Virus record (IMG/VR): IMGVR_UViG_3300011386_000023
DNA from: an uncultured virus (IMG/VR IMGVR_UViG_3300011386_000023)
Taxonomy: Duplodnaviria > Heunggongvirae > Uroviricota > Caudoviricetes
Length of the DNA: 64,000 bases
Reading direction: 5' to 3' (one strand)
Part shown: positions 1,372-44,049 of the stretch, in pieces
How the letters are laid out: every line of letters begins with the position of its first letter
How positions within the stretch are numbered: position 1 is the first letter of the stretch
Translations under genes and position numbers: made by a program
The notes under the pieces: model-generated
What the model was told of the DNA's origin: nothing
Databases searched by the model: none
The model's input: only the letters and a program-made list of their open reading frames with translations

Positions 1372-2070
1372 ATGATCCAATCCCCCTCTAGTACGCAAAA
1401 GCGTAATAGAAACCTTTTAATACAGTACTTTGCAAAGGAAATTAATACCGATTTTGCTATTGATCTGGAAATGTTATTACTTTCAAAGCAAACACTCATT
1501 AATCAAGTTACCAATGCAATTCCGCGTAAAGAGTTTAGCTCAAGATTAAATGGTTATTGTCTGCATTTTTTAGGCACAAGTGCCTTAGAAGAAGCATGTC
1601 AAAAGTACAATTTAACGTATCAAGTTGAATCGACTAATGGTAGAAAGGGGGGAGAATATGGGCTAGTTATTTCAGAAAATTTTGTTTTAGCATTCTCTAA
1701 TAATCTTCGATCGGCTAAAGATAGAAGCACTTATCAGACTAAATATGCTGAAACAAATGGAATGCTAGGTTTGTCTCAAGCAGAGTTTGACTTTGGTGAC
1801 TGCATTGCTCACGTTAAAACTGATGAAGACCAGTTCTATGTTGTGGTTGGGTTTAAAAGAAATAGTCTCAACTCAACCTATGATTTAGTTTTTACCGTAC
1901 CTGATGATAACGGTAATAAAATTTTTGATTTTTATATCAAAGATTTAGTGGATGCAGTAAATATACCATTTGATGATAGTACAGAAGCTAATGAAGCTGA
2001 AAGTACAAGCTTAGATCAGAAAGATCCATCAGTTAAATTGAAGTTAAAACGTAGAATATCTGATCTTTGA
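1372..2070 (+). CDS. Hypothetical protein; candidate toxin/effector partner of the downstream XRE-metallopeptidase
   Basis: 232-aa ORF ending 21 bp before the XRE/ImmA gene on the same strand. Confidence 0.7.
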   Translation: MIQSPSSTQKRNRNLLIQYFAKEINTDFAIDLEMLLLSKQTLINQVTNAIPRKEFSSRLNGYCLHFLGTSALEEACQKYNLTYQVESTNGRKGGEYGLVISENFVLAFSNNLRSAKDRSTYQTKYAETNGMLGLSQAEFDFGDCIAHVKTDEDQFYVVVGFKRNSLNSTYDLVFTVPDDNGNKIFDFYIKDLVDAVNIPFDDSTEANEAESTSLDQKDPSVKLKLKRRISDL

Positions 2071-2091
2071 TTCTATATCAGGAGTACTTAA

Positions 2092-7552: not shown

Positions 7553-7569
7553 TATCTAATCTAACCCTC

Positions 7570-9468: not shown

Positions 9469-9474
9469 TTAATC

Positions 9475-12180: not shown

Positions 12181-12182
12181 GC

Positions 12183-12863
12183 TTACCCCCTTCTTACTTG
12201 AGCGAGTTGCGATTCTAATTCACTCACTTTTTTATTTAATTCAACCTTCCGATTAAATTGCCTTTCATTTCTTAACTTAGACTGCAACTGATTAAGCTGC
12301 TTTTGCAAGCTTTCAAGTTGTTGAGATTTTTGCAACTGAAGTTCAATAGAAACCGATTCATTATCGTTTTCCTGATCTTTACTGAATGCAATCGGCAATA
12401 TCTGTGCGATGAAATGTTCATATAGATCAGCCAGTTTTAAGTAAATAGGCAATTCAACACGATCATGATCTTCTAGCCACTCAGAAGAATAATATTGACC
12501 TATCACCGTTTTAGTTTTGTCTGCTTGATTCAAACGCTTATAGGTTGCAACAACTTTCACTTTATCTTGATAAACCACTTCAAAAATAATTGGAGTGAGA
12601 ATGAGTTTATCAATGAAAGATAGTATTGACACATCTAAATCTTCAACCCGACTTTTTACTCGAAAGATTTGAATTTCCTTCAAATCTTCCTGATCTTGGA
12701 GGTGAATTGTAGATGAAGCCAACTTGTACGCCCACCGTATATTTTCCACTTGATTAACAAATAGCTGTTCGATCTTGCTATTGGCTTTACCTTGCTCATA
12801 AAACTTATTTTTCGGAATTAACCGATCCACTTTAGCCTGCTGCGGAAACTTGTATAACTTCAT
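12183..12863 (-). CDS. DUF4391 domain protein
   Basis: IPKNKFY, IRWAYKLA..T, EIQIF, C-terminal coiled coil ending ERQFNRKVELN; typical position between SNF2 and mod. Confidence 0.88.
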   Translation of the reverse strand: MKLYKFPQQAKVDRLIPKNKFYEQGKANSKIEQLFVNQVENIRWAYKLASSTIHLQDQEDLKEIQIFRVKSRVEDLDVSILSFIDKLILTPIIFEVVYQDKVKVVATYKRLNQADKTKTVIGQYYSSEWLEDHDRVELPIYLKLADLYEHFIAQILPIAFSKDQENDNESVSIELQLQKSQQLESLQKQLNQLQSKLRNERQFNRKVELNKKVSELESQLAQVRRG

Positions 12864-12865
12864 GC

Positions 12866-15800: not shown

Positions 15801-16141
15801 CGTCGTATCCAATCTGCACATTCTTTAGCAATTGCCTTTTGTGATAACTGATTTTTTAAGTGAATTTCAAATTCTGTTCCATACAGGCTGCTTTCACGAT
15901 CTTGTTTAGGAATAACAAATTCACGTTTCTCTTTCTTTAGCTTATCCGTCACATTATCCGCAACAAAGGTTGGGGATGTAAAAACAAATTGCAGTTCTTC
16001 GATCTTTTCTAATTCTTTTTTTAAATTAGCAAAGGCATAGATAGAAAAATATGAAGCAGCGATCTTCAATCTAGATTTACTATTTAAATTGTTCCCAATA
16101 TCGGAACCCAATGTGCTGTTGATGTTATCAATAAGTTTCAT
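12866..16141 (-). CDS. SNF2-family helicase with degenerate PLD-like N-terminal domain
   Basis: ILADSVGLGKT, DESHNFRN, SATPVNN, ISEGQNLQ, QRFGRVDRIGS; N-terminal LKIAASYFSIYAF. Confidence 0.92.
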   Translation of the reverse strand: MKLIDNINSTLGSDIGNNLNSKSRLKIAASYFSIYAFANLKKELEKIEELQFVFTSPTFVADNVTDKLKKEKREFVIPKQDRESSLYGTEFEIHLKNQLSQKAIAKECADWIRRKAKFKSNNSNAPMQEFISIQKPEQSLTYMPIQGFTPMGLGFEKGNAISNMVNCFDEQPMVQTYIQLFNQIWNDPSKVEDVTSEIIRHIESVYQENPPERIYFLMLYNIFKDFLEDINADVMPNDLTGYQDTLVWNKLFNFQKDAAVGIINKLETYNGCILADSVGLGKTFTALAVIKYYELRNKSVLVLCPKKLGANWTNYNANLVTNIFAKDRFSYDVLYHTDLSRKGGETLGIDLAKINWGNYDLVVIDESHNFRNRGTFKDRETRYDRLMNQVIRQGVKTKVLMLSATPVNNHFTDLKNQLALAYEGNAALLENKLDTERDIETIFRRAQASFNAWAKLDPAQRTTQAILNLLDFDFFKLLDSVTIARSRKHIQTFYETKDIGQFPQRLKPISFRCALSNDQDSVSLNQIYADLSLIKMSVYAPVSYIFTSALKKYEEIFDTRVEGKGKLRQVDREKSLQALMTVNLLKRLESSVHAFRLTLNVLKKNIENVLEKIADFEARQAGDEVSISPDFGYDEDENGELLNAEDLIGNKLKIHLADMDLLSWKTDLDGDYHIILGLLRMIQPITAEKDAKLQHLKAHVVEKIQNPINPNNRKVIIFTAFADTANYIYEHIAPILLETYGLHSAKVIGSDNTSTIKTRVGSRQSYDMQGLLTLFSPQSKQKADIFPEESREIDVLIATDCISEGQNLQDCDYLINFDIHWNPVRIIQRFGRVDRIGSSNSVIQLVNYWPDISLDEYINLRERVENRMVIVDMTSTGDDNVLSAQANDIAYRREQLQKLQTEVLDLEDANTGVSITDLGLNDFRMDLLGYMEEHSELERLPNGLHTVVPAQPELGLNAGVIFTLRARHPESPNSQSNRLYPYYLVYINQGSEVVYDYTQAKYLLDVARKACRGKDHPIPEAYEKFNEKTNDGRDMNRYSELLDIVIHTIQDVKAEKDIDSLFSGLTTSALVDVVSGLNDFELISFIVIEEP

Positions 16142-16769: not shown

Positions 16770-17711
16770 TCAATTCACCGCCCTCACACTCCCCTTCAGC
16801 CCCTGCTGCATTTCCTGCACAAACCCTTCCCCTTGATTTGGCTTCGATTTTGCTTTGGCTCTCGCTATAGACTGTGTCTGTTCAACTCCTTGGTTCACAG
16901 TTTCATCTGCATCACTATAAAACTCCTCGACCAAATCCAATCCCTCCTCTGCATTGACTTCAAACTGTGCATTGGCAAAACCCTGCCGTGCAATCTGATC
17001 TAATGCCGTCTGATCAAACCCTGCTTGTTTACTTTGCTGGTCAATCTCTTGCGCCATTTGAATAGCTTGTTGCAGATTAACCCCATCTTTCAATGTTAAA
17101 TCCACATAGTACACAGGAGTACGATAGCTTTGTGTGGTGGACTTGCCTCTTAGTGTAAGTTGCAGTGGTAGGCATGAAAGTAAACCATTCGATGCAGCGT
17201 GGTAGTAACTCAGTCGTGCTGCCAAAGTCCGAATGCTGTTAAAGCCAGTGGTTCTAAAAATAAACGTACCGAGTTCATCCGATTCATCTAAGTTCACATG
17301 CAAGCGTCCAAAAGGTTTACAGTTCCCTCCTTGTGCCAATGGACATAAATCAGGTGATGGGCATGGTTGCTGCTCAACGCCTTGATTGGTGAGTCGCTGA
17401 CAGGTTTCACCATTGCCTACACAGACAGGTCGTCCTGTTTGTCGATCAAATAAGCTGTACTCCGCCCTTAGATTTAGCTCAGGATCATTGAAGATCATCC
17501 GTACTGGAATGGTACGGAGTTTTTGATTCGGTGCTTTACTGCGTAATTGCTCATCGAGTGGATGTTTGATCCAGCCCTCCTTGCTTTGAATCTGGGAAGT
17601 AATGGTGAACTGATCATCTTTTTCAGGTAGACGTTTACCGTTCTTTTCAACAACTTTACCGATACTGATACGTCCAAGGATCGGTGGGGTAATCGCTAAA
17701 CCTTTAATCAT
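16770..17711 (-). CDS. Gp3-like / recombination-directionality-factor-like protein
   Basis: MIKGLAITPPILGRISIG, CVGNGE, CPSPDLC..CKPFGRL, FRTTGFNS; usual partner of YqaJ and DUF932 in islands. Confidence 0.7.
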   Translation of the reverse strand: MIKGLAITPPILGRISIGKVVEKNGKRLPEKDDQFTITSQIQSKEGWIKHPLDEQLRSKAPNQKLRTIPVRMIFNDPELNLRAEYSLFDRQTGRPVCVGNGETCQRLTNQGVEQQPCPSPDLCPLAQGGNCKPFGRLHVNLDESDELGTFIFRTTGFNSIRTLAARLSYYHAASNGLLSCLPLQLTLRGKSTTQSYRTPVYYVDLTLKDGVNLQQAIQMAQEIDQQSKQAGFDQTALDQIARQGFANAQFEVNAEEGLDLVEEFYSDADETVNQGVEQTQSIARAKAKSKPNQGEGFVQEMQQGLKGSVRAVN

Positions 17712-17775
17712 GTTGTTTGTCCTATAAATAAAATTTTACTGCTTACACCTTGTTATGTAAGTAAACAGAAATATG

Positions 17776-17863
17776 AAAAAGCTACGACTTTGCAAGAACC
17801 GCCATTGTTGGTCTACCGCTCCTTCGGGAGTCGGTAGATCGGAGGTGGTTTTTTGCACTTTTT
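17776..17863 (+). other. Long imperfect hairpin with C(UUCG)G loop that folds on the strand antisense to the flanking genes
   Basis: TGCAAGAACCGCC..GGTCTACCG-CTCC-TTCG-GGAG-T-CGGTAGATC..GGTGGTTTTTTGCA; G-T wobbles favour the + strand. Confidence 0.55.
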
Positions 17864-17892
17864 GGAAGATTGGAAATATCGACGTGATGGAT

Positions 17893-18933
17893 TCAGTCAT
17901 CGGTATAGATCTGAAAACGTCGTGTCCCTGCTTTGTTTTGCGGAAACTGCTCAAGCATTTCTGGGTGAAGTTTGAGTAAGGCTTTGCTGTCTAAACTGAT
18001 TGAATCTTTGGATTTCTTCCACGTCACCGAACCATTGGCAAAGGTTGCTCGTTCAGCATCCTTCATCAACATCTGGATTTGATGCTTAATTTCATCAAAG
18101 TTATTTTGATGCTGCTCAATGTGATGCTTTTCTTGAATCAGTTGAGCAAACAATTGATTGGCTTGTTCGTGATGACTCAAGTCTTCAACAGTTAATGGAA
18201 TATGTTGCGGATAGAGCTGCTGTATAGCTTTGGCTGCCGACTCACTGGCATCCACATCAGGTGGTGTGTCTTTTTCCACACACTCCCAAAAGTAACGCTC
18301 TGCATTGACGATATGCTCAATCACCGATTCCGAACGTATCACTTTATAGATACGAGTTTCATGACCACAGATCAGCACACAAATATGTGCTGCCTTTTTG
18401 CCTGTTACAGCGAGTTGATGTTGCACCTGACACAATACGTATAAAGGCACGCCATCTCGCCATAACTTTGCTCCATATTCTCCTGCGGTTTTGCATTCTA
18501 AAATCTGTACTTCCTCACTACCTACTACCGAGTAATCTAAGTTAGCCAGCATAAAATGCTTATCCTCATCAGGATGTTGTAGTACGGCATTGATACGACG
18601 GACTTTGTTGTTGGTATGCATGCTGTAGTATTCAGCGACCAAAGGTTCAAGTTGTTTGCCCCAATATAAAGGGGCATGACCTGCGCTTTCATCTTCAATG
18701 GATTGTTTGACTCGACCTGTCTTGATCATCCATAGTTCAAGCATCGACATATAGGGATTGAGTCCACACGCTGCGGCACAATCACTACTACCGATGCCTT
18801 GACGACGTACTTCAAGCCATTCTGCTTGAGTCATGTTTTTGGTATTGACCAAGCGTTTGGCTGTGAATAATTTTGGGGCAATAAATGGAGTACTTGCCTG
18901 TTGAATGGATGGATTTAAAATTGCGGTATTCAT
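17893..18933 (-). CDS. YqaJ-like viral recombinase family exonuclease
   Basis: EWLEVRRQGIGSSD, WGKQLEP, MLANLD, ILECKT, YVLCQVQHQLAVTG. Confidence 0.92.
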   Translation of the reverse strand: MNTAILNPSIQQASTPFIAPKLFTAKRLVNTKNMTQAEWLEVRRQGIGSSDCAAACGLNPYMSMLELWMIKTGRVKQSIEDESAGHAPLYWGKQLEPLVAEYYSMHTNNKVRRINAVLQHPDEDKHFMLANLDYSVVGSEEVQILECKTAGEYGAKLWRDGVPLYVLCQVQHQLAVTGKKAAHICVLICGHETRIYKVIRSESVIEHIVNAERYFWECVEKDTPPDVDASESAAKAIQQLYPQHIPLTVEDLSHHEQANQLFAQLIQEKHHIEQHQNNFDEIKHQIQMLMKDAERATFANGSVTWKKSKDSISLDSKALLKLHPEMLEQFPQNKAGTRRFQIYTDD

Positions 18934-18990
18934 ATTGAAGTCCTGATTATTTTGCTATGTAAAATGATGGGGATCACAAAAAATGGGCAT

Positions 18991-19019
18991 AAAAAAACCA
19001 CAGCCGAAGCTATGGTTTT
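18991..19019 (-). terminator. Intrinsic terminator between DUF932 and YqaJ
   Basis: Minus strand AAAACCATAGC-TTCG-GCTGTGGTTTTTTT. Confidence 0.7.
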
Positions 19020-19101
19020 AATAATTTTTAAAATTCTAAATTCCATTTAAAAATGCTTAGTTAGGTCTAACTTTCCATGATTGAAAAATGTATATTTCGC
19101 A

Positions 19102-20145
19102 CTATGCAAGCATGTTAAGTGCCTGTTCCAATCCTCGTTGTTTGATCGATACGCCAGCACCAAACCAAGCTGAATCAAGTCGGTGATCGGTACTCATGGC
19201 ACGACGTTCGTGGTCTATAAATTCCGTGATTGAACACAGTAATCCATAGGCTGTTCCTTTGGCTGAACTTAGCTCCGCACCTCGTCCTTGACCATTAAAC
19301 ATTTCCATAGCTCGACTCATCGATCTCGCATTTGGTTCAGCTTTGTCCTTGCCATTGGCTTGGGCTTGCAAGGCTACATCACGGTAGAACTGAATGATGT
19401 TATCCTCCTGATCTAATACGTTGTTCATGGTGCTGTTATTGAATACTGCATCAAAGTAAGCGGATGCTTCCATCTGACTCACCTTACGTTGTGTCAGTTG
19501 CTTCATTTCATACATGTGTTCATCCCATGCACGTACTGAAATACCCAATTGCTGTTTGACCCTATCTGCATCAAATTTAGTACTGTGTGGAACTTTGACC
19601 ACACCTGCACTGCTGTTCTGTCCTTTTAAGGCAATCGCTAAAGTGTTGTTACACACCACTCGGATCGAGGTAAATTGTGCGGTGGTGGCAAGGGTTCCGT
19701 CACATGCTGTTGCCAAGAGCATATAGCCATTACTGACATCTTTGCCCTTTAATATGGATGTTTGCCCTGTCCGAGCCAGTGCCCAGAATTTCTTACCACC
19801 TTTAAGCACGCCTGCGGTTTCAAGCTCAAAGCCTGATTGTTCAGTCAAGTCACGATAGAATTCTAAAATCTCTCGTGGTTGAACTTCCTGAAAGCGTTGG
19901 CTAACGACTGATAGTGGTGCATGGGTGTCTGAACGATAAAGCACTCGCTGTTCTTCATAAGGTATGATGATACTTTGCCCACGTTCATTCTGTGCCATAT
20001 AACTGACATTGGAAGACTCAATCCGCCAGTCCATGCCTGCCTGCTGTGCCCAGACTTCAATCGGTTGGTTTTGACTTAGTTGATTACCTAGACCATGCCA
20101 AGGGGTATCACCGACATAAGCCATTTGTTCAAGTTGATGTGCCAT
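19102..20145 (-). CDS. DUF932 domain protein
   Basis: MAYVGDTPWHGLG, ETAGVLKGGKKFWALA, TSIRVVCNNTL, SAWFG. Confidence 0.92.
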   Translation of the reverse strand: MAHQLEQMAYVGDTPWHGLGNQLSQNQPIEVWAQQAGMDWRIESSNVSYMAQNERGQSIIIPYEEQRVLYRSDTHAPLSVVSQRFQEVQPREILEFYRDLTEQSGFELETAGVLKGGKKFWALARTGQTSILKGKDVSNGYMLLATACDGTLATTAQFTSIRVVCNNTLAIALKGQNSSAGVVKVPHSTKFDADRVKQQLGISVRAWDEHMYEMKQLTQRKVSQMEASAYFDAVFNNSTMNNVLDQEDNIIQFYRDVALQAQANGKDKAEPNARSMSRAMEMFNGQGRGAELSSAKGTAYGLLCSITEFIDHERRAMSTDHRLDSAWFGAGVSIKQRGLEQALNMLA

Positions 20146-26452: not shown

Positions 26453-26704
26453 ATTCCTGAAGAATAGATGAAATGGATTGTCGGAATTATGGTTCCCATA
26501 TTTTTCAATAATTTAGGATTTTATATTTAATTAATAAGTACTAATAATCAATATATTCTATTGATAAACAATACATTTAATTAGATTTATTATTCATTCA
26601 ACAACTCTTCTAAAACCTATATCAAACATATCACGACTCATACCAAGGCTAACCATGCCTTGGTAGGGATTCACTTACTTAAAATTTACCTAAAAGGGCA
26701 TTAT

Positions 26705-27793
26705 ATGAACACAGACCTAAATGATTATCCTAATGATAATTATGAAAAATATTCCATACATAAGGTGGATGATAAAAGCATTGTAATAATTGATGATCCA
26801 GAAGCATTACAGAAGGATAGAATCATTCAACTTATAAAAAAAACGCACAAAGATGGAAAGTTTTTAATCTACGTTCTTCATCCCGATAAAAAGCAATCTT
26901 ACAAAATTAATCACAGGCCTTTACATGATGCATTAAAAAACATTGATCCACGATTTATATATGATGACACTTACTTAAGTGCTGAGACTGACCTATTTCG
27001 TAAGATATACATAGAGTGCTTCCCTGCACATATTGTAAATGATACATCTACAAACTTTTGGCAACTTGCTCACAATGAGCCAATAGCGATCAGCCCAACT
27101 CACTACAAGCCTAAAGCTCAAATTTTAAATGAGTTCTACCAACGTCTCTTCAAAGCATTATCTACTGATATAGACTATAAAAAAGCAGTAAAACTACGCA
27201 AAGAAAAAAGCTTAAATCAGAACAAGAAGGCTAAATGGCTAATCCGAAAATTAATTATTAAATTCAGTAAATTACTGGTAATTCGAATTGATTTCTCCAT
27301 CAATCGAAATTTTCAAATAACACTTGAACTACTGAAAGCATACATGAGCACTTTCTTAAAAAAGCTCCATACACCAAATGACGAAATACCTTCCATTGTC
27401 GGCTATATCTGGAAATTAGAGTATGGCATACAGAAAGGCTATCACTATCATTTTATTTTTTTTATGGATGGCAATATCTATTGGAATCATTCTTTCTATG
27501 CAGACCAACTCTGTAAATTATGGATGAGCATCAGTCAGAACAAAGGATATTACTATAACTGCAATAACAAAATGAAATCCTACAAAAAACTTGCACTTGG
27601 GATACTTGTGCATGATGACCATGAGAAAACTGAAACATTGTATTCGGTCGTAGATTACATCACCAAAGCCGACCAGTTCATTATCGAAAAAACGCTTAAG
27701 AACCATCGTACGTTTGGCTATAGCACTCGTAAGTATGAAAAAAGTAATGCTGGGAGACCTCGTAAGATCAACGCAGGATCAATATCAGTCTAA
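26705..27793 (+). CDS. YagK/YfjJ (inovirus Gp2 family) protein with HUH-like motif
   Basis: KLLVIRIDF, GYIWKLEYG..KGYHYHFIFFMDG, YITKAD, RTFG. Confidence 0.85.
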   Translation: MNTDLNDYPNDNYEKYSIHKVDDKSIVIIDDPEALQKDRIIQLIKKTHKDGKFLIYVLHPDKKQSYKINHRPLHDALKNIDPRFIYDDTYLSAETDLFRKIYIECFPAHIVNDTSTNFWQLAHNEPIAISPTHYKPKAQILNEFYQRLFKALSTDIDYKKAVKLRKEKSLNQNKKAKWLIRKLIIKFSKLLVIRIDFSINRNFQITLELLKAYMSTFLKKLHTPNDEIPSIVGYIWKLEYGIQKGYHYHFIFFMDGNIYWNHSFYADQLCKLWMSISQNKGYYYNCNNKMKSYKKLALGILVHDDHEKTETLYSVVDYITKADQFIIEKTLKNHRTFGYSTRKYEKSNAGRPRKINAGSISV

Positions 27794-28727: not shown

Positions 28728-29999
28728 TTAAACACTAGCAACTCGTGCAAATCCATCTGTTCCGTTTCCACCGATAATATCTGAATCATAGCCACCTTTC
28801 TGTCCACCAGCACCACCACGGCCAACAACCAGAGTGATTGTTTGATTTGTTGTACTATTATTAGTGTATTGAGCCACAAGAACAGAGCCTGATGCACCGC
28901 CACCGCCAAATGACCAACCTTCATCTCCAATTCCCATAGCACCATCACCACCTTTACCGAATAGAGCAATAGGACTTACAGATGCACCACCTGTGTGGTC
29001 TTCCTTGGTTGCATTGCCTACTTTACCTTGAATGATTGTCGTTGAGTCAAATGCACCAATAATGTCTACAGCACAAACAGCACCAGCTTGCCCATTATCA
29101 TAAGCTGAACCGTTACTCCATACGCCTTGGGTGCCGCCACCGCCACCGTGAACAACGGCAATGTTTTCCCCGTTAACTTTAAGCAATAGATCAGCACCAG
29201 CTTGCCCATTGCTCAAAGGATATGCAGAGTTATTAGAACGACGTGATGCACCACCGCCACCTCCAGCACCGATCAGTGTAAAGTGCTTCGTTTCACCGGG
29301 TTGTAGAACGAAACTATATAAACCAGCCGGGTAATCGCCATCAACAGTTGTACTATTAGGATTCTTATGTTGGAGTACTTGGAAACTTACCTGGCCAGAA
29401 TAACCAATACGGTTTGTACCTGAACGATTATAAATCTTTGGTTTAAAGCTATTTATATCACGGTCAAATGAAGGTGCTTCATTGGCTGCTTCTGGACTTA
29501 AAAAGATACCAATATTACGATCTGTCAGGTTATAGATGTCAGGTGCTTTAATCTTGTCATTATCAGCAATCCAGCCATCTGTACCACCAATCATCGTTAC
29601 CGTACCGCCACCTTCGCCGCCATTGTAATAAAACACACCTGAAGCAAGGATTCTTGGATATGAAACATAATTGAGTAATGCAGTAATCTGAGCTTGTAGC
29701 TCATTACGTGCGTTTTTATTAAAGGCAGCTTCAGCAGCAAAGCGAGCTTCAATTGCTGCTGCGAGGTTTTCTAGGTCTGGATAAGTTGCTAATAATTCAT
29801 AGAGCTGCTGTCGATTATTTGGGTTTAAAACAACTCCATGCTTCTCAAGTACGTTTGCAATCTCTTCCTGAACCATATTGCACCATTCAGGTGTGAGATA
29901 AGTTGCATCTTGTCCGGGAACATCTTCATTTGAATGGAAACCTTTTTTTCCTGTACCAAACATGTCAGGTCGCGCATTTACACTATCGATCCGCTTCAT
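28728..29999 (-). CDS. Tail fibre protein (Mu gpS-like N-terminus, glycine-rich C-terminal domain)
   Basis: MKRID..GF..AT.LTPEWCNMVQEEIANV..G..LNP...QL; multiple GGGG motifs; follows baseplate genes. Confidence 0.8.
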   Translation of the reverse strand: MKRIDSVNARPDMFGTGKKGFHSNEDVPGQDATYLTPEWCNMVQEEIANVLEKHGVVLNPNNRQQLYELLATYPDLENLAAAIEARFAAEAAFNKNARNELQAQITALLNYVSYPRILASGVFYYNGGEGGGTVTMIGGTDGWIADNDKIKAPDIYNLTDRNIGIFLSPEAANEAPSFDRDINSFKPKIYNRSGTNRIGYSGQVSFQVLQHKNPNSTTVDGDYPAGLYSFVLQPGETKHFTLIGAGGGGGASRRSNNSAYPLSNGQAGADLLLKVNGENIAVVHGGGGGTQGVWSNGSAYDNGQAGAVCAVDIIGAFDSTTIIQGKVGNATKEDHTGGASVSPIALFGKGGDGAMGIGDEGWSFGGGGASGSVLVAQYTNNSTTNQTITLVVGRGGAGGQKGGYDSDIIGGNGTDGFARVASV

Positions 30000-36835: not shown

Positions 36836-37069
36836 TTAGCCCTTTAATTTTGAATGTTTACGAACACTGGTCACATATGTTTTTGTCACTGTAGAGCTGT
36901 TCCCATTTGTTTGAGTATGGGTTGTGACGGATGATTTTGGTGGCGCTTGTGGTGTTTCTGAAGGTACAGATTCCACTTGACGAGGTAAAGGCCGCGTAGC
37001 ACCAAGGAAAGCCATTGCAATATGCAGAGGCAAATTAATTGCATCTGCATATGGGATACCAATGGCCAT
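36836..37069 (-). CDS. Tail assembly chaperone C-terminal (T) segment, probably expressed by -1 frameshift from the upstream gene
   Basis: Lies in the -1 frame, which is open back to 37141 across the upstream stop; G_AAA_AAA at 37141-35. Confidence 0.7.
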   Translation of the reverse strand: MAIGIPYADAINLPLHIAMAFLGATRPLPRQVESVPSETPQAPPKSSVTTHTQTNGNSSTVTKTYVTSVRKHSKLKG

Positions 37070-37098
37070 TAATGCTCTAATTAACTGAACGCGCCCAA

Positions 37099-37428
37099 TT
37101 AATTCGCGGCTTTGACCTTTGCTTCCAATTCTGCTTTTTTCTCATTGAAATGGATGAGATTGAACGATGAAGTTTGGGCAATATCTTCATATGTAGGTTC
37201 ATATTGATTACCAGCCTCATCAACTAACTTAAGCATCGCGACAATATCTGAAATAGCAATGTATTGCAGACCAGTAATCTTCGCTTGAGCTTCAACGTAT
37301 TCAAGGGCGGTTAATGAAGACATCACGTATTTCGTGCATTTGATTGTTTTCTTTGCCTGTTTAAGTTCAATGGCTACAGGCAAATTACCATCTACAAAAA
37401 TTCTTTCCATTTTACACTGTCTCATCAA
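37099..37428 (-). CDS. Tail assembly chaperone (G / Mu gp41-like)
   Basis: Position between tube and tape measure; size ~105 aa. Confidence 0.75.
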   Translation of the reverse strand: MMRQCKMERIFVDGNLPVAIELKQAKKTIKCTKYVMSSLTALEYVEAQAKITGLQYIAISDIVAMLKLVDEAGNQYEPTYEDIAQTSSFNLIHFNEKKAELEAKVKAAN

Positions 37429-37789
37429 GATAATCTAAGCAGAACATTTCTATGTCACGCATGGTTTCACCATCCACGTTGTATGACTTACTCACTGTTT
37501 GTACATTACAGTCAATAAACGTTTCGCGGTATTTGCCATCCGGTGATTCAACAGAAAGACGTCCATCTTCAACAGCCAACCAATTGACTGTATCTTTACC
37601 ATCCGGAATTACAACTGAGGCCGTTAACTGATAGGTTGTGATTCCTTTTGATTTATACTTCACCCGTTGTTTACGGTTCATTGTTGGGACTGGGCGATTG
37701 CCCGTAGTAATTGATGATGTAAAACGAGCAACGTCATAATCCAGCCCGTTAAAGCTCATGACGATTGCACCAACTGCATCTTCAGACAT
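37412..37789 (-). CDS. Tail tube protein
   Basis: 125-aa beta-rich ORF directly after the sheath. Confidence 0.8.
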   Translation of the reverse strand: MSEDAVGAIVMSFNGLDYDVARFTSSITTGNRPVPTMNRKQRVKYKSKGITTYQLTASVVIPDGKDTVNWLAVEDGRLSVESPDGKYRETFIDCNVQTVSKSYNVDGETMRDIEMFCLDYLDETV

Positions 37790-37847
37790 TGTTCAACACT
37801 CTTTTTTAAGATGGCCCATTGTCTAATGCATATAAAAATAAAATCAG

Positions 37848-37863
37848 GCGGAAGGACTTCCGC
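37848..37863 (-). promoter_or_regulatory. Late-promoter palindrome upstream of the tail tube
   Basis: GCGGAAGGACTTCCGC, 59 bp upstream of ATG; -10-like GACAAT at the conserved spacing. Confidence 0.8.
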
Positions 37864-37870
37864 TCAATAT

Positions 37871-37899
37871 AAAAAAAGACCGCTTATTGCGGCCTTTTT
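37871..37899 (-). terminator. Intrinsic terminator after the sheath C-terminal gene
   Basis: Minus strand AAAAAGGCCGC-AATAA-GCGGTCTTTTTTT. Confidence 0.7.
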
Positions 37900-37914
37900 A
37901 AGTCGAGAGGATAA

Positions 37915-38724
37915 TTAGTAAATATCCAAAGTGGTTGCAATAACATGCATGCCACGCACCCAGTAGGTAGGGATTTTGACATTTACTCGATATTGATCAT
38001 GTGTATCTGGAGTCACAATGACCTCATCTAAATTATCGCGAACGTTTTCTAGAATTTCAGCATCTTCAAGCTGAATTAATCGCCGAGCAATAATAGATTT
38101 AATATTACGACGTTGTGCTGCTGTATTTTTACGACGTCGTTCTTTCTTGAGATCCTGACGCACAACTTTACGAGTATAGTCCACTACCAATACGCCATTA
38201 ATATCAAGCATCAGATCATCAGATTCCCCTGAATCAGGGTTCATACGATAAGTCGAAATGGCACGAACAATTTCCGGTTTACCGTCTGCACCCGTTTCGA
38301 TCATACATACACCTTTTTTCATCGCTGCTTCCATACGTTCAAAGGTTAGCTTGAACTCATCAGCAACAGGTGTAAGACCACCTAGATTGACACCATTGAA
38401 TGGCAATGCCGGGTCGTTAGAATCGGCTAACGCAGCAGCCATTGCCGCGGCAAGTTCAGGCTCTTGACCTGTGGCACCGTTATAACAAACAACTAAAACA
38501 CGGTAATTAGTTTTTACTGGGGCTTGTTCAGCAAAAGCTTCAGCTGCTTCAATATCTGAAAAAGGTACAACTAGAATTGCTGGACGTTGCTCAATTGAGT
38601 CGCTGACAGATGTTAAATGGTCGATCCATGCATTTGTATCGGCACCTGCAGCTGGTGGAGCTGACACGGCAATGATTGTATGGCCTAAAGGTGCGATGGT
38701 ATCGAGGGTTGTTTGAATAGTCAT
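37915..38724 (-). CDS. Tail sheath, C-terminal part (Mu gpL-like)
   Basis: DPALPFNGVNL.GL, IVRAISTY, LDIN...VVDYTR, DQYRVNVKIP..VRGMHVIA; own GGAG RBS. Confidence 0.88.
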   Translation of the reverse strand: MTIQTTLDTIAPLGHTIIAVSAPPAAGADTNAWIDHLTSVSDSIEQRPAILVVPFSDIEAAEAFAEQAPVKTNYRVLVVCYNGATGQEPELAAAMAAALADSNDPALPFNGVNLGGLTPVADEFKLTFERMEAAMKKGVCMIETGADGKPEIVRAISTYRMNPDSGESDDLMLDINGVLVVDYTRKVVRQDLKKERRRKNTAAQRRNIKSIIARRLIQLEDAEILENVRDNLDEVIVTPDTHDQYRVNVKIPTYWVRGMHVIATTLDIY

Positions 38725-38936
38725 AGTGCTTCTCCAGATACTTGTTGCATACCAGAATTTGGTTCAATTCGTGGTCGCTCAGACTCATATTGCTCTTCAG
38801 AAATAAACTCAACTTTATGAATAGTTACCAATTGATTTGATTCAGTTAACTCACCATAAATGATAACTGCATTGGTGCTTTTATTAATGACTTTAAAATA
38901 TTGACCATCAGCCATTGTGTAAGTTTTAACGTCCAT
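38721..38936 (-). CDS. 71-aa hypothetical protein inside the split sheath locus
   Basis: Translationally coupled on both sides (TAATG and ATGA overlaps). Confidence 0.7.
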   Translation of the reverse strand: MDVKTYTMADGQYFKVINKSTNAVIIYGELTESNQLVTIHKVEFISEEQYESERPRIEPNSGMQQVSGEAL

Positions 38937-40288
38937 TAAGCTAGACCTCCATCAATAATCGTCCATCCCGCACCGATCAGCCCACTAGCTGCTGCTTGAC
39001 TCGCAGCTGATCGTTTTGCTGATGCAAGCACAACACGCGGGCTTGTACCATTTGCCCATTCGTTTCGTCGCGTTGTGCCGACATCGAGCCACAGTGCATT
39101 CAAATATTTATCATAGTTTTCGGTAGACCAATTTGGCGCTGATGATACATCCGCCATATTTGCATTCACGTTAAATTTTGCGGGCCATGCCGACAAATCT
39201 TGATTGAACGATGTTGCACCCTGTACGAAGCCTTGAAAGTTCAATACGTTTCTAATATCCCAATCATTGATTGGTTGATTGAATGATGATGCATACCAAA
39301 ACATGAATGCCATTGATACTGCTGATCTAAAGCTTCCAGTGATTGTGTTATTGAAGACCTTATTATAAGAAAACCAGCCAGAGACATCTCTTAAATTCGG
39401 CGCATTAAATTTAATAGGTTTATTAAATGCTGACTCTGCAAACAAGTAGTAAGCTTCTACTAAATTCGGCATATTACCCAATTCGACTGTTTGATTGAAT
39501 GAAACTGCGCCCAATAAAAAGTTATTCAAAATTACGGCCTTTCCGAAATTAAAATTCGTTAATGGCTGATTGAATTTTTTAGCACCTGCCAACATGTTAG
39601 AAAAATTATCACACTCTGAAGTATCAATATTTAATTTCGAGTTGAACGACGCAGCTCCGTTAAGCATAAACGATATGTTTGTCGGTTTTGCGCTCCTTAT
39701 CGTGATGTCTTTATTGAACTTTGCAGTACCCATCAATAAATTATTAATGCTTAATAGTTTCGGGGCGTCCCAATTTACCTCACGATCAAAATTGGTCGCA
39801 TTCGCAAAACAATATCCAGCATCTTCAACTTGACTCACATCCCATGAATTTACTCGCTGATTGAAGCTCCCTATCCTCATACAAATGCCGTTGATCGTTG
39901 TTGCGCCATCAGTGTGAACACCTAAAGAATAATCAGGATAAGCACCGAAGAAGGTTGAACCATCAGGTGGATCGAATCCTAGGATTCGGTCTTTATCTTT
40001 CCAACTCAGATATGCGTAGTCGCGCCCCGCATCAAGTTTTAATGTTACTTCCATGGCAGGATTGAAAATCCCCTCTGTAACTGGATCAATGATTCCGAGT
40101 GACGCACAAGTAAGAGTACCCCCGACTACTTTAAATTCTTTAGGATTGTCATTACGAAATTTGAAAATGTCGCCATTTTCCACGTCTTGATTTCGAACAA
40201 TGCGGACATTGCTAACATAGCCTTTCGGTGGAAAAACATTAATCGATTGATCGACTGTATTTGTCGATTTAAACACTGTGCATGACAT
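38936..40288 (-). CDS. DUF285/BspA-like repeat protein
   Basis: About nine ~24-aa repeats of type W/F-D-x-S-x-V...MF..A..FNQ; AGGAG RBS. Confidence 0.85.
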   Translation of the reverse strand: MSCTVFKSTNTVDQSINVFPPKGYVSNVRIVRNQDVENGDIFKFRNDNPKEFKVVGGTLTCASLGIIDPVTEGIFNPAMEVTLKLDAGRDYAYLSWKDKDRILGFDPPDGSTFFGAYPDYSLGVHTDGATTINGICMRIGSFNQRVNSWDVSQVEDAGYCFANATNFDREVNWDAPKLLSINNLLMGTAKFNKDITIRSAKPTNISFMLNGAASFNSKLNIDTSECDNFSNMLAGAKKFNQPLTNFNFGKAVILNNFLLGAVSFNQTVELGNMPNLVEAYYLFAESAFNKPIKFNAPNLRDVSGWFSYNKVFNNTITGSFRSAVSMAFMFWYASSFNQPINDWDIRNVLNFQGFVQGATSFNQDLSAWPAKFNVNANMADVSSAPNWSTENYDKYLNALWLDVGTTRRNEWANGTSPRVVLASAKRSAASQAAASGLIGAGWTIIDGGLA

Positions 40289-40306
40289 GACTAATTGCTC
40301 CTGCGT

Positions 40307-42652
40307 TTAAGCTGTGTAATTGAAATACGTATCTAAAAATGCAATACGCTTTTTTGTCCACGTCAAAATTTGTTCTAAGCTCGTGATGTTCAAAGAAGGA
40401 CGGACGGGCCAACGGGCCAACTCTAGCTCAACAACGCTGATCGAAAATTTTGAAAAAAGATCAGTCGATAGGTTATAGATGTTCTCAACTGAAATGATTT
40501 TCTGATCGCGCAATTGCTTATATCGTGCCTCGATGTCTGTGTTATATGTGGCTTTGACTTTGCGCCAGAACGAGCTTGAACTATTCCAAACAAGTTGTGA
40601 GCCTGTTGTATCGTCGTATACGACAGCACCAGTCCACTCAAGGCCGAAGACGGTATCCATGTCATAAGGCATAAACATGAATTTTTTTCCATCGTAGCTA
40701 ATAAACTGGAAATTTTTCGCTGAGTTTTGGCTTACAACGTCTCTACATTTCACAAACTCAGCAAAGATCATGAAATCAATCGCGTTTTGCTTATCAAGAT
40801 AATTATCCGCTTGTGCTGTAAAGTTCGCATCGCTGAGCTGTGCAAATGCGTTCCAGTTAGAAATTGCGGTCCATGTATCAGCGGTAGGTGTACTCGGCGC
40901 TTTCATTTCATAAAGCGTCGGATTTGTGACTTCAAGATTTGTGATGTCGTTCCATCCGTCCATTCCGATATGGATTTCTTTCGGCTTGTTTTTTGAGATA
41001 TTGTAGTTACTGCGTTTCTTCGCAGTTCCGAACGAACCAATGCCGTAGAACTCATCATTGATATACAGCAAGGCTGAATATAAACGCGGTACACCATTTG
41101 CTCCGCTTTGTAATGCGCTTTTCCCTGTTTTGCCAATATATGGTTTTTCGGTTTCTAGACGTGGATAACCTGTTCTTGACGCTGTAAATTGTTCCCACAA
41201 TCGGTAACACATTGCGTTACGGATGTTGGTGTGATCAATCCAGTTCGACTTGAACACGAGTTCGTCGTGTGGCAATAGATCGCCGATTTTGACGTCCAGC
41301 GCTTTTGTTAGAGCTTGATCTGAAAAGAATGCGATATTCCAATTCTTTTTCGCATACGATGCACTCGATGCGCCTTGCACTTCAAGCTTCACAAAGCAAC
41401 TGAATGACTGGCCGTCAAAATGAAATTCGCCCTTGCCAGATACGGTCGTCCCCTTGGCATCAGGCAAATTCGGCAAATCCGTTAGATAAATTTGGATGAT
41501 AGACTCTGGCGCTTTAACTGCGATTTGCTTAAGTGCGGTCACAGCTTGCGCTTTGTTTTTAAACTTCTTCAATTCATTGATTTCATTTAAAACATCGACA
41601 CCGTTGAAGACCCAATTGCCGAACTTATCGACGTAACCTAATAAATTCTTTTCAGCATCTTCAAATCGAATCAGTTTTGAGTCATCTGACTGCTTTGACA
41701 GTTTTTTCAAATACTCAAGTGCATCAACAGCATTGTGAAGCCCATCGATCTGACCAGAGCGCAGCATGCCGTTTTTTGTTAATCGCAGGACAATATTTCC
41801 GTCGCTATCTTCAAACGTATATAAATCACTGGAATTACTTGTCGCAAGCAGCTTTAACAGTACGCTGATATTGTTCAGATTCAGTTCATCGACAAACTTT
41901 TGTAGTTCTTTGATGTCTTCCTGATTTGTGAGCAAGATTGAACGTTTAGTATCTTCATCATACGAGACAAGCTGGCCCTTTTTATTCAGTGCAAGTACGA
42001 CATTTCCAGAACTGTCTTTGAACTCAAAGATGTTTTCAGAGTCAGAGGATAGAACGAATTTACCAATTAAATTCTCGACTGAAACATCAATATTATTTTC
42101 AAGATTCTTGATTTCAGTATCGGTATAAGACTTTGAATTTGATTCTGCTTGAGCCATTTTAGACTTGATTAAACCAAGTACATTATTCTCAAGCTTTAGA
42201 AAATCATTGCCATCAAAGTGATACTCTCCATTGATATCGTTGATGTCAGGATTATTATCTGGATCATCAACGACAGTAACAATAGAGTTAACTGGTATAT
42301 TTGAAACGTCTAAAAGCATTAAAGCTTTGGTTCGATAAGCTTTGTATACTCCATTTTTCTGGAAGAGATAAACGGAATATTCCATACGTTCAATGCGCTC
42401 ATTTTGAGCATCATCACGCATTTGACTTGCCTGACTCACCTCTGCAACAGAAGTAGGTGTTGCAAAATCAGCTACATCTTTTAATGCAGCAGAACCAAGC
42501 TCAGATTTAACAAAATCTGAAATTTGACCAATATCAGCTTGTTTTGTTTCTTCATCTTGGACTACCGGAATAACATCACCACGTGAAACGCTAGAAGTTT
42601 TTTCCAATTCACTGATTTTAGTACCAGGCACTTCAATCATGAGTTGAGCCAT
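40307..42652 (-). CDS. Fibre-like protein with C-terminal CotH kinase-family domain
   Basis: N-terminal KISEL..D.IPVVQ; three F.D..GN....L...G repeats; QGASS..AKKNW, DHTNIRN, LYINDEFYG, KNFQF..MPYDMDTVFG. Confidence 0.82.
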   Translation of the reverse strand: MAQLMIEVPGTKISELEKTSSVSRGDVIPVVQDEETKQADIGQISDFVKSELGSAALKDVADFATPTSVAEVSQASQMRDDAQNERIERMEYSVYLFQKNGVYKAYRTKALMLLDVSNIPVNSIVTVVDDPDNNPDINDINGEYHFDGNDFLKLENNVLGLIKSKMAQAESNSKSYTDTEIKNLENNIDVSVENLIGKFVLSSDSENIFEFKDSSGNVVLALNKKGQLVSYDEDTKRSILLTNQEDIKELQKFVDELNLNNISVLLKLLATSNSSDLYTFEDSDGNIVLRLTKNGMLRSGQIDGLHNAVDALEYLKKLSKQSDDSKLIRFEDAEKNLLGYVDKFGNWVFNGVDVLNEINELKKFKNKAQAVTALKQIAVKAPESIIQIYLTDLPNLPDAKGTTVSGKGEFHFDGQSFSCFVKLEVQGASSASYAKKNWNIAFFSDQALTKALDVKIGDLLPHDELVFKSNWIDHTNIRNAMCYRLWEQFTASRTGYPRLETEKPYIGKTGKSALQSGANGVPRLYSALLYINDEFYGIGSFGTAKKRSNYNISKNKPKEIHIGMDGWNDITNLEVTNPTLYEMKAPSTPTADTWTAISNWNAFAQLSDANFTAQADNYLDKQNAIDFMIFAEFVKCRDVVSQNSAKNFQFISYDGKKFMFMPYDMDTVFGLEWTGAVVYDDTTGSQLVWNSSSSFWRKVKATYNTDIEARYKQLRDQKIISVENIYNLSTDLFSKFSISVVELELARWPVRPSLNITSLEQILTWTKKRIAFLDTYFNYTA

Positions 42653-42662
42653 ATATTACTCC

Positions 42663-43010
42663 TTATGGTTCAATTAAAGCACCGTCTTCAGCTAACACAG
42701 CGTCACCCGATTCGGTATGTAATGCTTTCTGTGTCCGAACACCATCAACGGCAAGAGCAATTGCCTGAGCATTAACAAGGCGGTTTGTCTTTACAGCAGC
42801 TTTGATCATGCGACCAGCTTGTGAATTTTTTCCGAATTTAGAATCAGCTCCAGCTGTGTCATAAACATCAACTGGGGTGAATTGCCCGGACAAAACATCT
42901 AGCGTCACAAAAAGAACTTTTTGCTCATTAGCTGGAAGCCCTGTGCGGAGGGTATTGATATTGACGTCTGTATAAACGCCCGGTGTTTTAATACCAGCAG
43001 GAATACTCAT
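42663..43010 (-). CDS. Tail sheath, N-terminal part (Mu gpL-like) with a non-sheath C-terminal peptide
   Basis: IPAGIKTPGVYTDVN..GLPANEQKVLFV..FGKNSQAGRM; ends in LHTESGDAVLAEDGALIEP. Confidence 0.85.
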   Translation of the reverse strand: MSIPAGIKTPGVYTDVNINTLRTGLPANEQKVLFVTLDVLSGQFTPVDVYDTAGADSKFGKNSQAGRMIKAAVKTNRLVNAQAIALAVDGVRTQKALHTESGDAVLAEDGALIEP

Positions 43011-43621
43011 TATTTATTTTCCTTCAGTTCAACCAGATCAGAAGCGTCTTTAACGTCATCACCCGGCTCAAAGAAATAATCGACATTGATTCGATGGATT
43101 TCACCGATAGATTCATCAGCTTCTTCACGGTCACGATCAGAAGCAGTAATTGTGTATTGCGTAGTAAATGCTTGAGAAAGCACACTAATCGACTGACTAG
43201 CAGTTTTAGTATTAAAAATGGTTTTGGTTTTGCCTAATTCCAAAGGCTCAAGCCCTTTGACACCAACTGATGAAAGATCATTACCAATCAATAGCTGATG
43301 AACATGATGCAGCATTTCGTATGTACCAATATCACCTCCAGCACCCTGACGACGTGCTTCCTCATTACGAACAGAGCGTGCACCAACGAGTACTACAAAA
43401 GTCACTGGATATTGAGTCTTGTTATAACTGATCTTTTTAGGGGTGCCAGAACCTTCAAAAACCACCCATATCGCTGGGAATCCTTTAACAATAGCAGTCA
43501 AGCCATCATCAAATTCCCCGCCATACGTTTTGATTTGACGAACCCAAGTCCATTTTTTAGCAGTGACCTGATTAGCCATGACTTGTTTAAGACCTTGTTC
43601 GACAACGCTTAAATTAATCAC
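43010..43621 (-). CDS. Mu gp37/DUF1834-like tail terminator
   Basis: IKTYGGEFDD, FPAIWVVFEG, VLVGARSVRNEEARR. Confidence 0.85.
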   Translation of the reverse strand: MINLSVVEQGLKQVMANQVTAKKWTWVRQIKTYGGEFDDGLTAIVKGFPAIWVVFEGSGTPKKISYNKTQYPVTFVVLVGARSVRNEEARRQGAGGDIGTYEMLHHVHQLLIGNDLSSVGVKGLEPLELGKTKTIFNTKTASQSISVLSQAFTTQYTITASDRDREEADESIGEIHRINVDYFFEPGDDVKDASDLVELKENK

Positions 43622-44049
43622 CAGCCTTTACCTCCAAAATCATGACGTCCAACTTGGAACATCACATTGTTAGAGGAAGTTTTAACAGGCTCAGATTCAC
43701 CAGCTGGCGTACCACCAACACCAACAATACCTTTAGAAATATCTTTCAATTTGTTGATGGCATCGACATAGCGTGTGCGGATCGGGTCATCGTCAGTCAT
43801 TGCACCAGTGCATGCATGATAGCGTGCAATATGGCAAGCAAGGCTTTCAAGGAATGGAGGGACAGTTTGCAACGGCAGCTTATAGCGACCCATTAGATAA
43901 CCATCAATTTCCGAGTTAGCTTCTTGCAGTGCTGCATTTAACTTGTCGTAATTAATAGCATCTAAATATTCAGATTCTTCATTATCAGTGAGTTGAATTA
44001 ATTCTCTTTCACCGAACTTTTTGATCATCGCGTCTGCCGTTGCATACAT
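43618..44049 (-). CDS. Mu gp36/DUF1320 head-tail connector
   Basis: MYATADAM..FGEREL, EIDGYL.GRYKLPL, CHIARY. Confidence 0.9.
   Translation of the reverse strand: MYATADAMIKKFGERELIQLTDNEESEYLDAINYDKLNAALQEANSEIDGYLMGRYKLPLQTVPPFLESLACHIARYHACTGAMTDDDPIRTRYVDAINKLKDISKGIVGVGGTPAGESEPVKTSSNNVMFQVGRHDFGGKGW

Follow-up and report, generated by a model that had tools for sequence, protein, structure and literature searches.

A Tail Sheath Encoded by Two Separate Genes

How can a contractile tail sheath be built when its gene is present as two parts with three other genes between them? This question is raised by a 64,000-nt stretch of DNA from the IMG/VR record IMGVR_UViG_3300011386_000023 (hereafter the window), in which five open reading frames (ORFs) of interest, all on the minus strand, encode a sheath N-terminal part of 115 aa (the N chain, 42663..43010), a 781-aa fibre (40307..42652), a 450-aa DUF285 repeat protein (38936..40288), a 71-aa protein (38721..38936), and a sheath C-terminal part of 269 aa (the C chain, 37915..38724). 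A first-pass annotation had listed these five ORFs and interpreted them as a split Mu gpL-like sheath with fibre genes in the gap, and both the positions and the sheath identity are borne out by the ORF map, phrog_165, and Pfam. We propose that the sheath consists of two chains, that the gap between their genes is a second fibre slot, and that a short repeat peptide at the end of the N chain, here called the plug, docks trimeric fibres on the sheath; taken as a whole, we consider this reading probable.

In the tail sheath family phrog_165, which has 493 positions, the N chain covers positions 7-105 (3.4e-11); it also aligns end to end with the 129-position "tail sheath" family phrog_5292 (8.8e-50). 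The C chain covers positions 213-491 of phrog_165 and passes the Pfam cut-off for Phage_sheath_1C (31.1 bits against 26.9). Against a 472-aa Klebsiella phage sheath, the two chains correspond to residues 10-98 (BLASTP 7e-11) and 210-470, respectively. The N-chain profile aligns to residues 8-89 of the Mu sheath structure (PDB 9khy, chain entry 9khy_a), and an AlphaFold2 (AF2) model of the C chain, with a mean predicted local distance difference test (pLDDT) value of 67.7, finds its best fold match in residues 217-485 of the Mu sheath (Z 12.7, root-mean-square deviation 8.4, 249 aligned residues). The same model aligns to residues 96-366 of the pyocin sheath and 119-476 of VipB, and 40 or more further sheaths match. 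The break accordingly falls between Mu residues ~90 and ~217, or at pyocin residues ~95/96.

The Mu sheath protein gp39 comprises an N-arm, domain I (the inner wall, of which helix 72-86 touches the tube), domain II, the outward and divergent domain III, and a C-arm (PMC11915804; this and the other published sources are cited for those parts of their text that were available). Since the N chain corresponds to Mu residues 8-89 and the C chain to 217-485, the N chain would hold the N-arm and the part of domain I with the tube-contacting helix, followed by the plug, and the C chain would hold the remainder of domains I and II plus the C-arm. Judged from the alignments and the fold model, the chain break sits at the domain III site, in a surface loop.

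The first-pass annotation had equated the missing middle with the outward-projecting domain. This was right as to the place of the break; however, the closest intact relatives never had that domain, and the ~105 residues are absent relative only to Mu-type sheaths of 469-495 aa. Those relatives, from Acinetobacter, are single chains of 355-366 aa with a ~19-residue linker at the break and without domain III. These compact sheaths are 56-69% identical to the N-chain core and ~66% identical to the C chain, they have the same flanking genes, and 366-aa examples also occur in two unverified faecal phage records. Together, the N and C chains total 384 residues (12,039 and 29,545 Da; the tube protein of the window has 14,009 Da), which is close to the 365-aa single chains. 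In a tree of the C chain, for which identical sequences were merged from 54 to 42 rows, the intact 365-aa sheaths form one clade (99/100) inside an Acinetobacter polytomy, a topology that does not decide the order of the split and intact states.

Another arrangement at this position was seen in two proteins, P0173 (256 aa) and P0193 (221 aa), which carry the N-chain core, a Gly/Ser-rich or short linker, and an extra domain of ~130-150 residues. These fusions represent a third use of the same sheath surface site; a genomic context for the P0173 type of fusion did not turn up in the viral contigs searched.

Each chain has an ORF and a start of its own, and 3.9 kb lie between the two ORFs. A one-base overlap (TAATG) joins the upstream gp37-like gene to the N chain, an AAGGAG sequence lies 7 nt ahead of the ATG of the fibre gene, and the 71-aa gene is translationally coupled to the C chain by an ATGA overlap with GGAG upstream, in agreement with the initial description of plausible ribosome-binding sites, coupled genes, and no frameshift debris. 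It is hardly conceivable that cassette excision, an intron, an intein, or translational bypass restores a single chain from the two parts; no supporting evidence was found for any of these. The cassette borders lack flanking direct repeats, the only exact 14-nt pair having one copy within the C part and the other within the fibre gene; no Rfam family, hence no intron model, was detected in 37000-44000; and no intein or recombinase domain was found by Pfam in the five proteins. The C chain begins directly with sheath-homologous residues behind its own Shine-Dalgarno sequence and ATG, and the cargo of such loci amounts to 2.2-4.9 kb of expressed genes.

Conservation of the Split and Selection on Both Chains

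A search of viral contigs with the C chain yielded 34 loci, 30 of which hold enough upstream DNA to be scored, while the other four end at contig ends. The split is present in 30/30 scorable loci: full-length N and C parts are separate, the gap measures 2153-4924 nt, and the intervening genes vary. Viral contigs were also searched with the anchor, the N-terminal segment of the gap fibre, and 54 strong loci were obtained, 28 of them on contigs absent from the C-chain retrieval. All 54 have a repeat-tailed N part 4-31 nt upstream of the anchor gene; the C part follows downstream in 45, and the other nine end at contig ends. The layout is identical in genomes titled Acinetobacter pittii (two loci), A. 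calcoaceticus, A. gerneri, and A. higginsii.

The median ratio of nonsynonymous to synonymous substitution rates (dN/dS, Nei-Gojobori) is 0.083 for the N-chain core (293 pairs), 0.082 for the C chain (422 pairs), and 0.144 for the tube; for N-chain residues 88-115, it is 0.20 (277 pairs). Both sheath chains are under strong purifying selection, the gene is not decaying, and the split is a fixed character of this Acinetobacter Mu-like prophage lineage. The expectation of the first-pass annotation that the split point would be constant and the cargo variable was thus realised, and the two-chain sheath that it had suggested is well founded.

These results bear directly on the possibility that an insertion simply broke the sheath gene of a decaying prophage without a functional tail. 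Relatives at ~60-67% identity do have an intact 365-aa sheath, and one chimeric deletion product (P0182) is present in the protein collection; nevertheless, the same split boundaries recur in 30/30 and 54/54 loci from several species, dN/dS is 0.08 for both parts, five split records are 94-99% complete (CheckV), and a structural proteome was detected in A. baumannii DU202 (PMC6118003). Decay is therefore very improbable, and the split, despite the existence of intact 365-aa relatives, is neither unique nor degenerate. P0182 itself (435 aa) joins a sheath N part and the start of a C part to a gp47/JayE-like baseplate protein, and is probably the product of a deletion in a degraded prophage.

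Three Acinetobacter split sheaths (L044, 7001-8833; L046, 6974-8558; L047, 6986-9204) have a short N chain of ~88-97 aa. Their gap is filled by one ORF of 256, 158, or 375 aa without a Pfam hit, two of which are weakly matched by phrog_14345. The start of the gap ORF overlaps the N-chain stop, and this ORF may encode a separate outer decoration.

Presumed Products of a Sister Locus in a Published Proteome

The proteome of a purified vesicle fraction of A. baumannii DU202 lists "Mu-like prophage" proteins, and phage particles may co-purify with the vesicles (PMC6118003). In locus-tag order, the available part of this list contains RS10735 (head; 34,269 Da; 9.07 mol%), RS10725 (DUF1834; 22,743 Da), RS10720 ("phage tail sheath-like"; 11,862 Da; 0.175 mol%), and four hypothetical proteins, RS10715 (73,089 Da; 0.38 mol%), RS10710 (23,829 Da; 0.44 mol%), RS10705 (29,348 Da; 0.39 mol%), and RS10700 (13,825 Da; 2.84 mol%); after these come a basic protein of 74 kDa, baseplate proteins, and, at 0.26 mol%, a protein of 44 kDa. 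RS10720, RS10705, and RS10700 are the presumed N chain, C chain, and tube, and the tape measure was also detected, at 0.43 mol%. Because the tape measure scores level with the sheath chains, the abundances are too rough for copy numbers. Among our collected loci, one allele pair of 73,265 and 23,844 Da comes near the 73,089 and 23,829 Da of the two DU202 gap proteins. Gene order and mass suggest that this sister prophage makes its two sheath chains and its two gap proteins and that all four travel with the particles.

The Gap as a Variable Slot for Fibres

The first genes of the gap share ~95 N-terminal residues and then diverge fully, as seen in an alignment of 23 alleles. In the window, this anchor (or socket) comprises residues 1-95 of the 781-aa fibre (42368..42652), carries the motifs KISEL and PVVQxxETK, and is delimited by conservation; I13, L16, D26, P29, V31, Q32, and T36 are invariant across the 23 alleles. 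At 85% identity, the first genes fall into 16 clusters and the second genes into 11; a small second gene is present in many alleles. Of the 14 first-gene alleles scanned with Pfam, seven exceed the curated cut-off for a family of the carbohydrate-esterase or sialidase type: two each for BNR_2, GDSL/SGNH, and SASA, and one for BNR_4. A further allele has a hit below the cut-off, and six have none; no Pfam hit was obtained in any of the seven second gap genes scanned.

When proteins were searched with fibre residues 1-150, 57 clusters were retrieved, all from Acinetobacter where named, with heads annotated as CotH, SGNH/GDSL, sialate O-acetylesterase, sialidase, Big_2, and "pyocin knob". Among 1.84 billion representatives scanned in full with HMMER, just 32 proteins have the anchor, always at the N-terminus. 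The anchor gave no tblastn match in phages, its profile found nothing in the PDB, and no similarity to it was present in the canonical 423-aa baseplate fibre of the window; Megablast of the region against GenBank phages was likewise without a match.

A conserved anchor with exchangeable heads is the pattern of a receptor-binding protein. On the evidence of these sequences, the gap is a hypervariable slot for putative receptor-binding fibres with a conserved anchor and at least 16 head types, and the allele pattern suggests that the heads probably recognise or modify the capsule. In one CotH-type locus (L015, 3077-4078), the N chain and the fibre gene are separated by ~1 kb with a 79-aa ORF instead of by ~11 nt, possibly through an insertion.

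The window carries the CotH allele of the slot. Its 781-aa fibre consists of the anchor, a helical stalk with three beta-hairpin repeats (207-223, 276-292, and 329-349 in the AF2 secondary structure), and a CotH-fold head (40310-41515), for which Pfam gives CotH at residues 423-772 with 66 bits against a cut-off of 23.8; the architecture first described for this protein, including its KISEL..VVQ N-terminus, is thereby confirmed. The second gene of the cassette encodes the predicted DUF285 protein (Pfam 1.9e-36), whose phrog_22899 match is to the C-terminus of an 1857-position family, and the third encodes the 71-aa protein, which matches phrog_38174 over its full length. This cassette of CotH fibre, DUF285, and 71-aa genes occurs in only 9/34 C-chain loci, and the latter two genes are found only with the CotH allele.

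The CotH head is modelled with pLDDT of ~85-95, and its top Foldseek matches are the Bacillus cereus CotH structures 5jd9 and 5jda (E 1.4e-14, TMt 0.72). Only this fold search matched CotH, as PDB sequence searches with the 781-aa protein and with a 24-sequence profile returned no CotH structure. Within the head, D638, N647, D664, and D666 are invariant in 24 sequences; they may include counterparts of D228 and D251, the catalytic aspartates of Bacillus subtilis CotH. At 71-93% identity, the head recurs on no fewer than four further N-termini from Acinetobacter, with the junction at residues 91-200. The display of a kinase fold, proposed in the first-pass annotation, is therefore correct as far as the fold is concerned, but CotH is only one allele among the head types, and the system does not turn on the kinase fold.

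CotH heads of ~45% identity are common in proteins of 550-900 aa from Klebsiella, Raoultella, and Escherichia coli (including P0114 and P0143), some of which carry PF08400, the N-terminal domain of prophage tail fibres, together with a CarboxypepD_reg-like domain. Heads with a CotH fold therefore seem to form a widespread class of tips on prophage fibres.

The Plug and Its Predicted Docking to the Anchor

Residues 1-87 of the N chain are nearly invariant, while the last ~23 residues vary yet keep the repeats L-x-T-E-x-G-x-x followed by L-I-E-P. This plug (residues 93-115; 42666..42734) is defined by the sequence pattern, a period-8 LxTExG repeat ending in LIEP, and by the predicted interface. 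The pattern is kept over 23 distinct N-part sequences at 50% overall identity, and such a motif is unique in the window among real ORFs. Intact single-chain sheaths have a different, non-repeat sequence as linker.

We modelled three copies of anchor residues 1-150 (alignment of 23) together with N-chain residues 76-115 (alignment of 13), a complex foreseen in the first-pass annotation. Each of the three runs gave an interface score (ipSAE) of 0.73, as against 0.02 for the best of three controls. The runs agree in at least 86% of contacts, with a partner pLDDT of at least 65. In the model, plug residues 93-115 contact anchor residues 7-16 and 29-36 of all three copies, and the interface contains invariant columns of both the plug and the anchor alignments. 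As the anchor has no sequence relative in the PDB, recall of a sequence-similar complex by the model is unlikely. The model thus supports, but does not show, the binding of plug and anchor.

The distribution of the two elements points in the same direction. Of five records whose 365-aa sheath is intact, four being at least 90% complete, none (0/5) matched the anchor profile, which did match 5/5 split records, namely the five of 94-99% completeness, used as positive control. In the three split loci with the short N chain described above (A. brisouii, ANC 4204, and ANC 3929), the N chain stops at the core without the repeat, and the gap lacks the anchor.

Because plug and anchor are closely linked in the Acinetobacter lineage, unrelated phages provide more independent evidence. 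Weak anchor matches in other viral contigs form ten groups, whose proteins begin with K-I-S-E-L ... P-V-V-Q-x-G-E-T-K; one of these proteins is a pectate-lyase-type tailspike. In 5/10 groups (L110, L111, L112-115, L117, and L130), the directly upstream ORF ends in the period-8 repeat of the plug, and in 2/10 (L116 and L128/129), the repeat ends a baseplate-type protein of 212-218 aa (phrog_48, phrog_14404), which follows a J-like wedge gene and lies two genes upstream of the fibre. Under a strict pattern, the repeat was found in the last 50 residues of 5/333 ORFs (at least 60 aa; eight non-family loci), which are exactly the plug ORFs, although the plug of the window misses this pattern at one position. 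A tblastn search of phages with an unrelated socket N-terminus gave only an irrelevant hit outside the motif. The likeness of the N-chain tail to fibre-adaptor peptides, which the first-pass annotation had recognised, is hence corroborated by the same repeat beside KISEL..PVVQ fibres in unrelated phages.

Where the Gap Fibres Attach

According to the proposed mechanism, the N and C chains would fold together in trans as a minimal sheath protomer and polymerise on the tube as usual. From the homology map, the plug would leave the protomer at the outer surface, at the Mu domain III site. The model predicts that a trimeric fibre closes its three anchors round one plug, so that each trimer takes one plug; most likely, the plug inserts along the axis of the trimeric anchor and enzyme-tipped fibres are placed on the sheath itself. 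The virion would then carry a second fibre set beside the baseplate fibre, and the allele pattern suggests that its heads recognise or modify surface polysaccharide and that exchange of a head, or of the whole gap, may retarget the phage with the sheath core untouched. The role assigned to the plug at the outset, the docking of swappable appendages, is favoured by the varied cargo and by the model (0.73 vs. 0.02), but docking to the sheath is predicted rather than demonstrated.

Several points weigh against sheath-mounted fibres. Firstly, the complex score expresses the confidence of a model, and its calibration, in which the mark was reached by 116/157 solved complexes and 2/215 mismatched pairs, provides only rough counts here, as custom alignments and a three-copy chain differ from the calibration set. 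Secondly, 4-31 nt separate the last codon of the plug from the anchor gene, and such tight linkage alone would produce both co-occurrence and co-variation. Thirdly, three of the ten unrelated groups (L131, L136, and L137), which have atypical motifs, show no plug within 1.5 kb upstream. In addition, the DU202 match is one of locus-tag order and theoretical masses, not of sequence, and masses do not prove separate polypeptides; its molar percentages give the gap fibre no high copy (0.38 vs. 0.26 for the canonical fibre). The assembly of the chains, their contraction, and the position of the gap fibre on the virion are inferred or predicted throughout; assembly around the tube and contraction find indirect support in the adjacent tube gene, the purifying selection, and the matching proteins of the DU202 particle fraction.

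A less probable, though serious, alternative accepts the two-chain sheath and the receptor-binding slot, and has the fibres attach at the baseplate, neck, or head, with the position of their genes being accidental and the N-chain tail a linker remnant. Known myophage fibres sit on baseplate wedge proteins, as on the Mu gp48 loop (PMC11915804), the plug is borne by a baseplate-type protein in two of the unrelated groups, the DU202 gap fibre occurs at about the same level as the canonical fibre, and the linkage mentioned above could by itself account for the joint occurrence of plug and anchor. On the other hand, the N chain bears the sole plug-type motif of the window, purifying selection acts on its tail, in which the repeat is retained at 50% overall identity, intact relatives have a non-repeat linker and lack an anchor fibre, and the model puts the tail inside the anchor trimer with a score far above that of the best control. 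These observations lead us to prefer attachment of the fibres to the sheath by the plug.

How many plugs would be occupied is a further consideration. Mu has 30 sheath rings (PMC11915804), and on this basis, we estimate that full occupancy of ~180 subunits by 264-kDa trimers is unlikely, sterically as well as energetically. Few N chains might thus dock a fibre, either in the first or last sheath ring or as a free pool of adaptors, which would give one extra fibre ring rather than a decorated sheath. The steric estimate and the DU202 abundances, which show no large excess of fibre, fit this arrangement; however, no subset of N chains is marked in the sequence, and every protomer would present an identical plug where Mu has domain III; we regard it as improbable. 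In the extended form of the sheath-docking reading, every protomer would expose a plug, the tail could be dressed along its length with swappable enzyme-tipped fibres acting on the thick Acinetobacter capsule during passage of the tail, the plug-socket pair would be a portable docking standard used also on baseplate or tail proteins of unrelated phages, and a TssB/TssC-like split would have been reached independently; for this form, we judge the chances to be about even.

Comparison with Known Systems

The closest parallel to the split itself is found in the sheaths of type VI secretion systems (T6SS). In Pseudomonas aeruginosa, TssB contributes the handshake strand at the N-terminus along with two domain 2 strands, and the outer domain 3, which is absent from R2 pyocin, is formed by the C-terminal helix of TssB and the N-terminal helices of TssC (PMC5807055). 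Given that the TssB/TssC helices form this outer domain and that the phage break lies at the outward-domain site, both splits are in the same topological place. As in TssB/TssC (VipA/VipB), a small N chain is combined with a large C chain, and the C-chain model aligns to VipB as described above. In contrast to TssB/TssC, the phage chains show only phage sheath families in Pfam and stand in a Mu-like late operon, they belong to a phage tail rather than a secretion system, their genes are 2-5 kb apart with fibre genes in between, and the N chain has no ClpV-recycling domain and ends in a putative fibre-docking repeat.

The Mu sheath gp39 is the best match of both parts in sequence and fold, and the locus shares with Mu the gp37-like gene upstream, the tube gene downstream, and a Mu-type baseplate; gp39, however, is one 495-aa chain with domain III, whereas the window encodes two chains with a plug peptide at that site. 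Compact Acinetobacter sheaths, such as a 365-aa protein named from A. pragensis, differ in being one chain and in having an anchor-type fibre in none of the five records. For the docking, the nearest likeness is in the Mu baseplate, where one 23-residue "fiber docking loop" of the wedge protein gp48 anchors the N-terminus of the trimeric fibre gp49 (PMC11915804). The predicted plug-anchor contact follows the same one-to-three logic, and the Mu loop is on a baseplate protein instead of a sheath chain.

Fibres along a contractile tail have been reported in the "hairy" jumbo myophages phAPEC6 and vB_PcaM_CBB (PMC5259590, PMC7247149). These are large lytic phages, and neither a split sheath nor an attachment chemistry is given in the passages available from the two reports. 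SGNH-type "tailspike esterases" were described in A. baumannii prophages, for which capsule deacetylation was proposed with reference to the deacetylating Aristophanes tailspike (PMC12115436). Their SGNH or sialate O-acetylesterase heads on trimeric receptor-binding proteins are domain types shared with the slot alleles, and the accessible part of that description mentions neither a split sheath nor an attachment site.

In the open-access literature searched, we found no description of a split phage sheath, of CotH fibres, or of the plug motif (as literal strings), and no published name for the plug-socket pair; in the available text of a review on sheath evolution (PMC9230969), the terms "split" and "two genes" have no occurrence. 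The combination of a contractile sheath with a T6SS-like two-chain solution and a putative fibre docking peptide is unexpected, although each kind is known singly. If our reading is true, phage sheaths are not always single-chain, and the locus would be a natural phage counterpart of the TssB/TssC split that widens the plasticity of contractile machines. It would also point to a molecular basis for sheath-mounted fibres, which in the available accounts of hairy jumbo phages are so far morphological only, and define a short candidate docking peptide with a ~95-aa trimeric anchor, seemingly reused by unrelated phages. Furthermore, common A. baumannii prophages would possess a second, highly variable receptor-binding locus, which matters for host specificity deduced from prophage sequence.

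Genomic Context and Neighbouring Genes

The sheath genes belong to a Mu-like transposable prophage of Acinetobacter. Upstream of the N chain, a Mu-type late operon contains portal, protease/scaffold, head, gp36, and gp37 genes, the last of which directly precedes the N chain (43010..43621, minus strand; Pfam Phage_Mu_Gp37, 6.5e-33) and corresponds to the tail terminator gp37 of Mu (PMC11915804). Downstream of the sheath follow the tail tube gene (37412..37789, minus strand; phrog_185, tail tube, 3.2e-26), the tape measure gene, and gpN-, gpP-, gp45-, gp46-, gp47-, and gp48-like baseplate genes. The gp48-like wedge gene is followed by the canonical baseplate tail fibre (28728..29999, minus strand; 423 aa), a second, separate fibre locus with N-terminal matches to several tail fibre PHROGs. 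At 57.3-60.4 kb, the window holds an rve transposase and an AAA+ MuB-like gene.

A tyrosine integrase gene at the window start and an HTH-Peptidase_M78 (ImmA/IrrE-like) gene occupy 1-3291 (plus strand), and genes for a Gp3-like recombination directionality factor, a YqaJ recombinase, and a DUF932 protein are found at 16770-20145 (minus strand); from these genes, we conclude that a second mobile element adjoins the Mu-like prophage. Between them, at 4349-16141 (minus strand), five large co-oriented genes have the look of a defence island; their products are an SNF2-type helicase (1091 aa), a DUF4391 protein (226 aa), a 901-aa protein whose end matches UvrD_C_2, a DNA methylase of the N6/N4 type (632 aa), and a 1067-aa ResIII helicase that also has an RE_endonuc domain. 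Just beyond the fibre end of the prophage, a gene at 26660-27793 (plus strand) encodes a 377-aa protein with YagK/YfjJ C-terminal and replication-protein-like domains.

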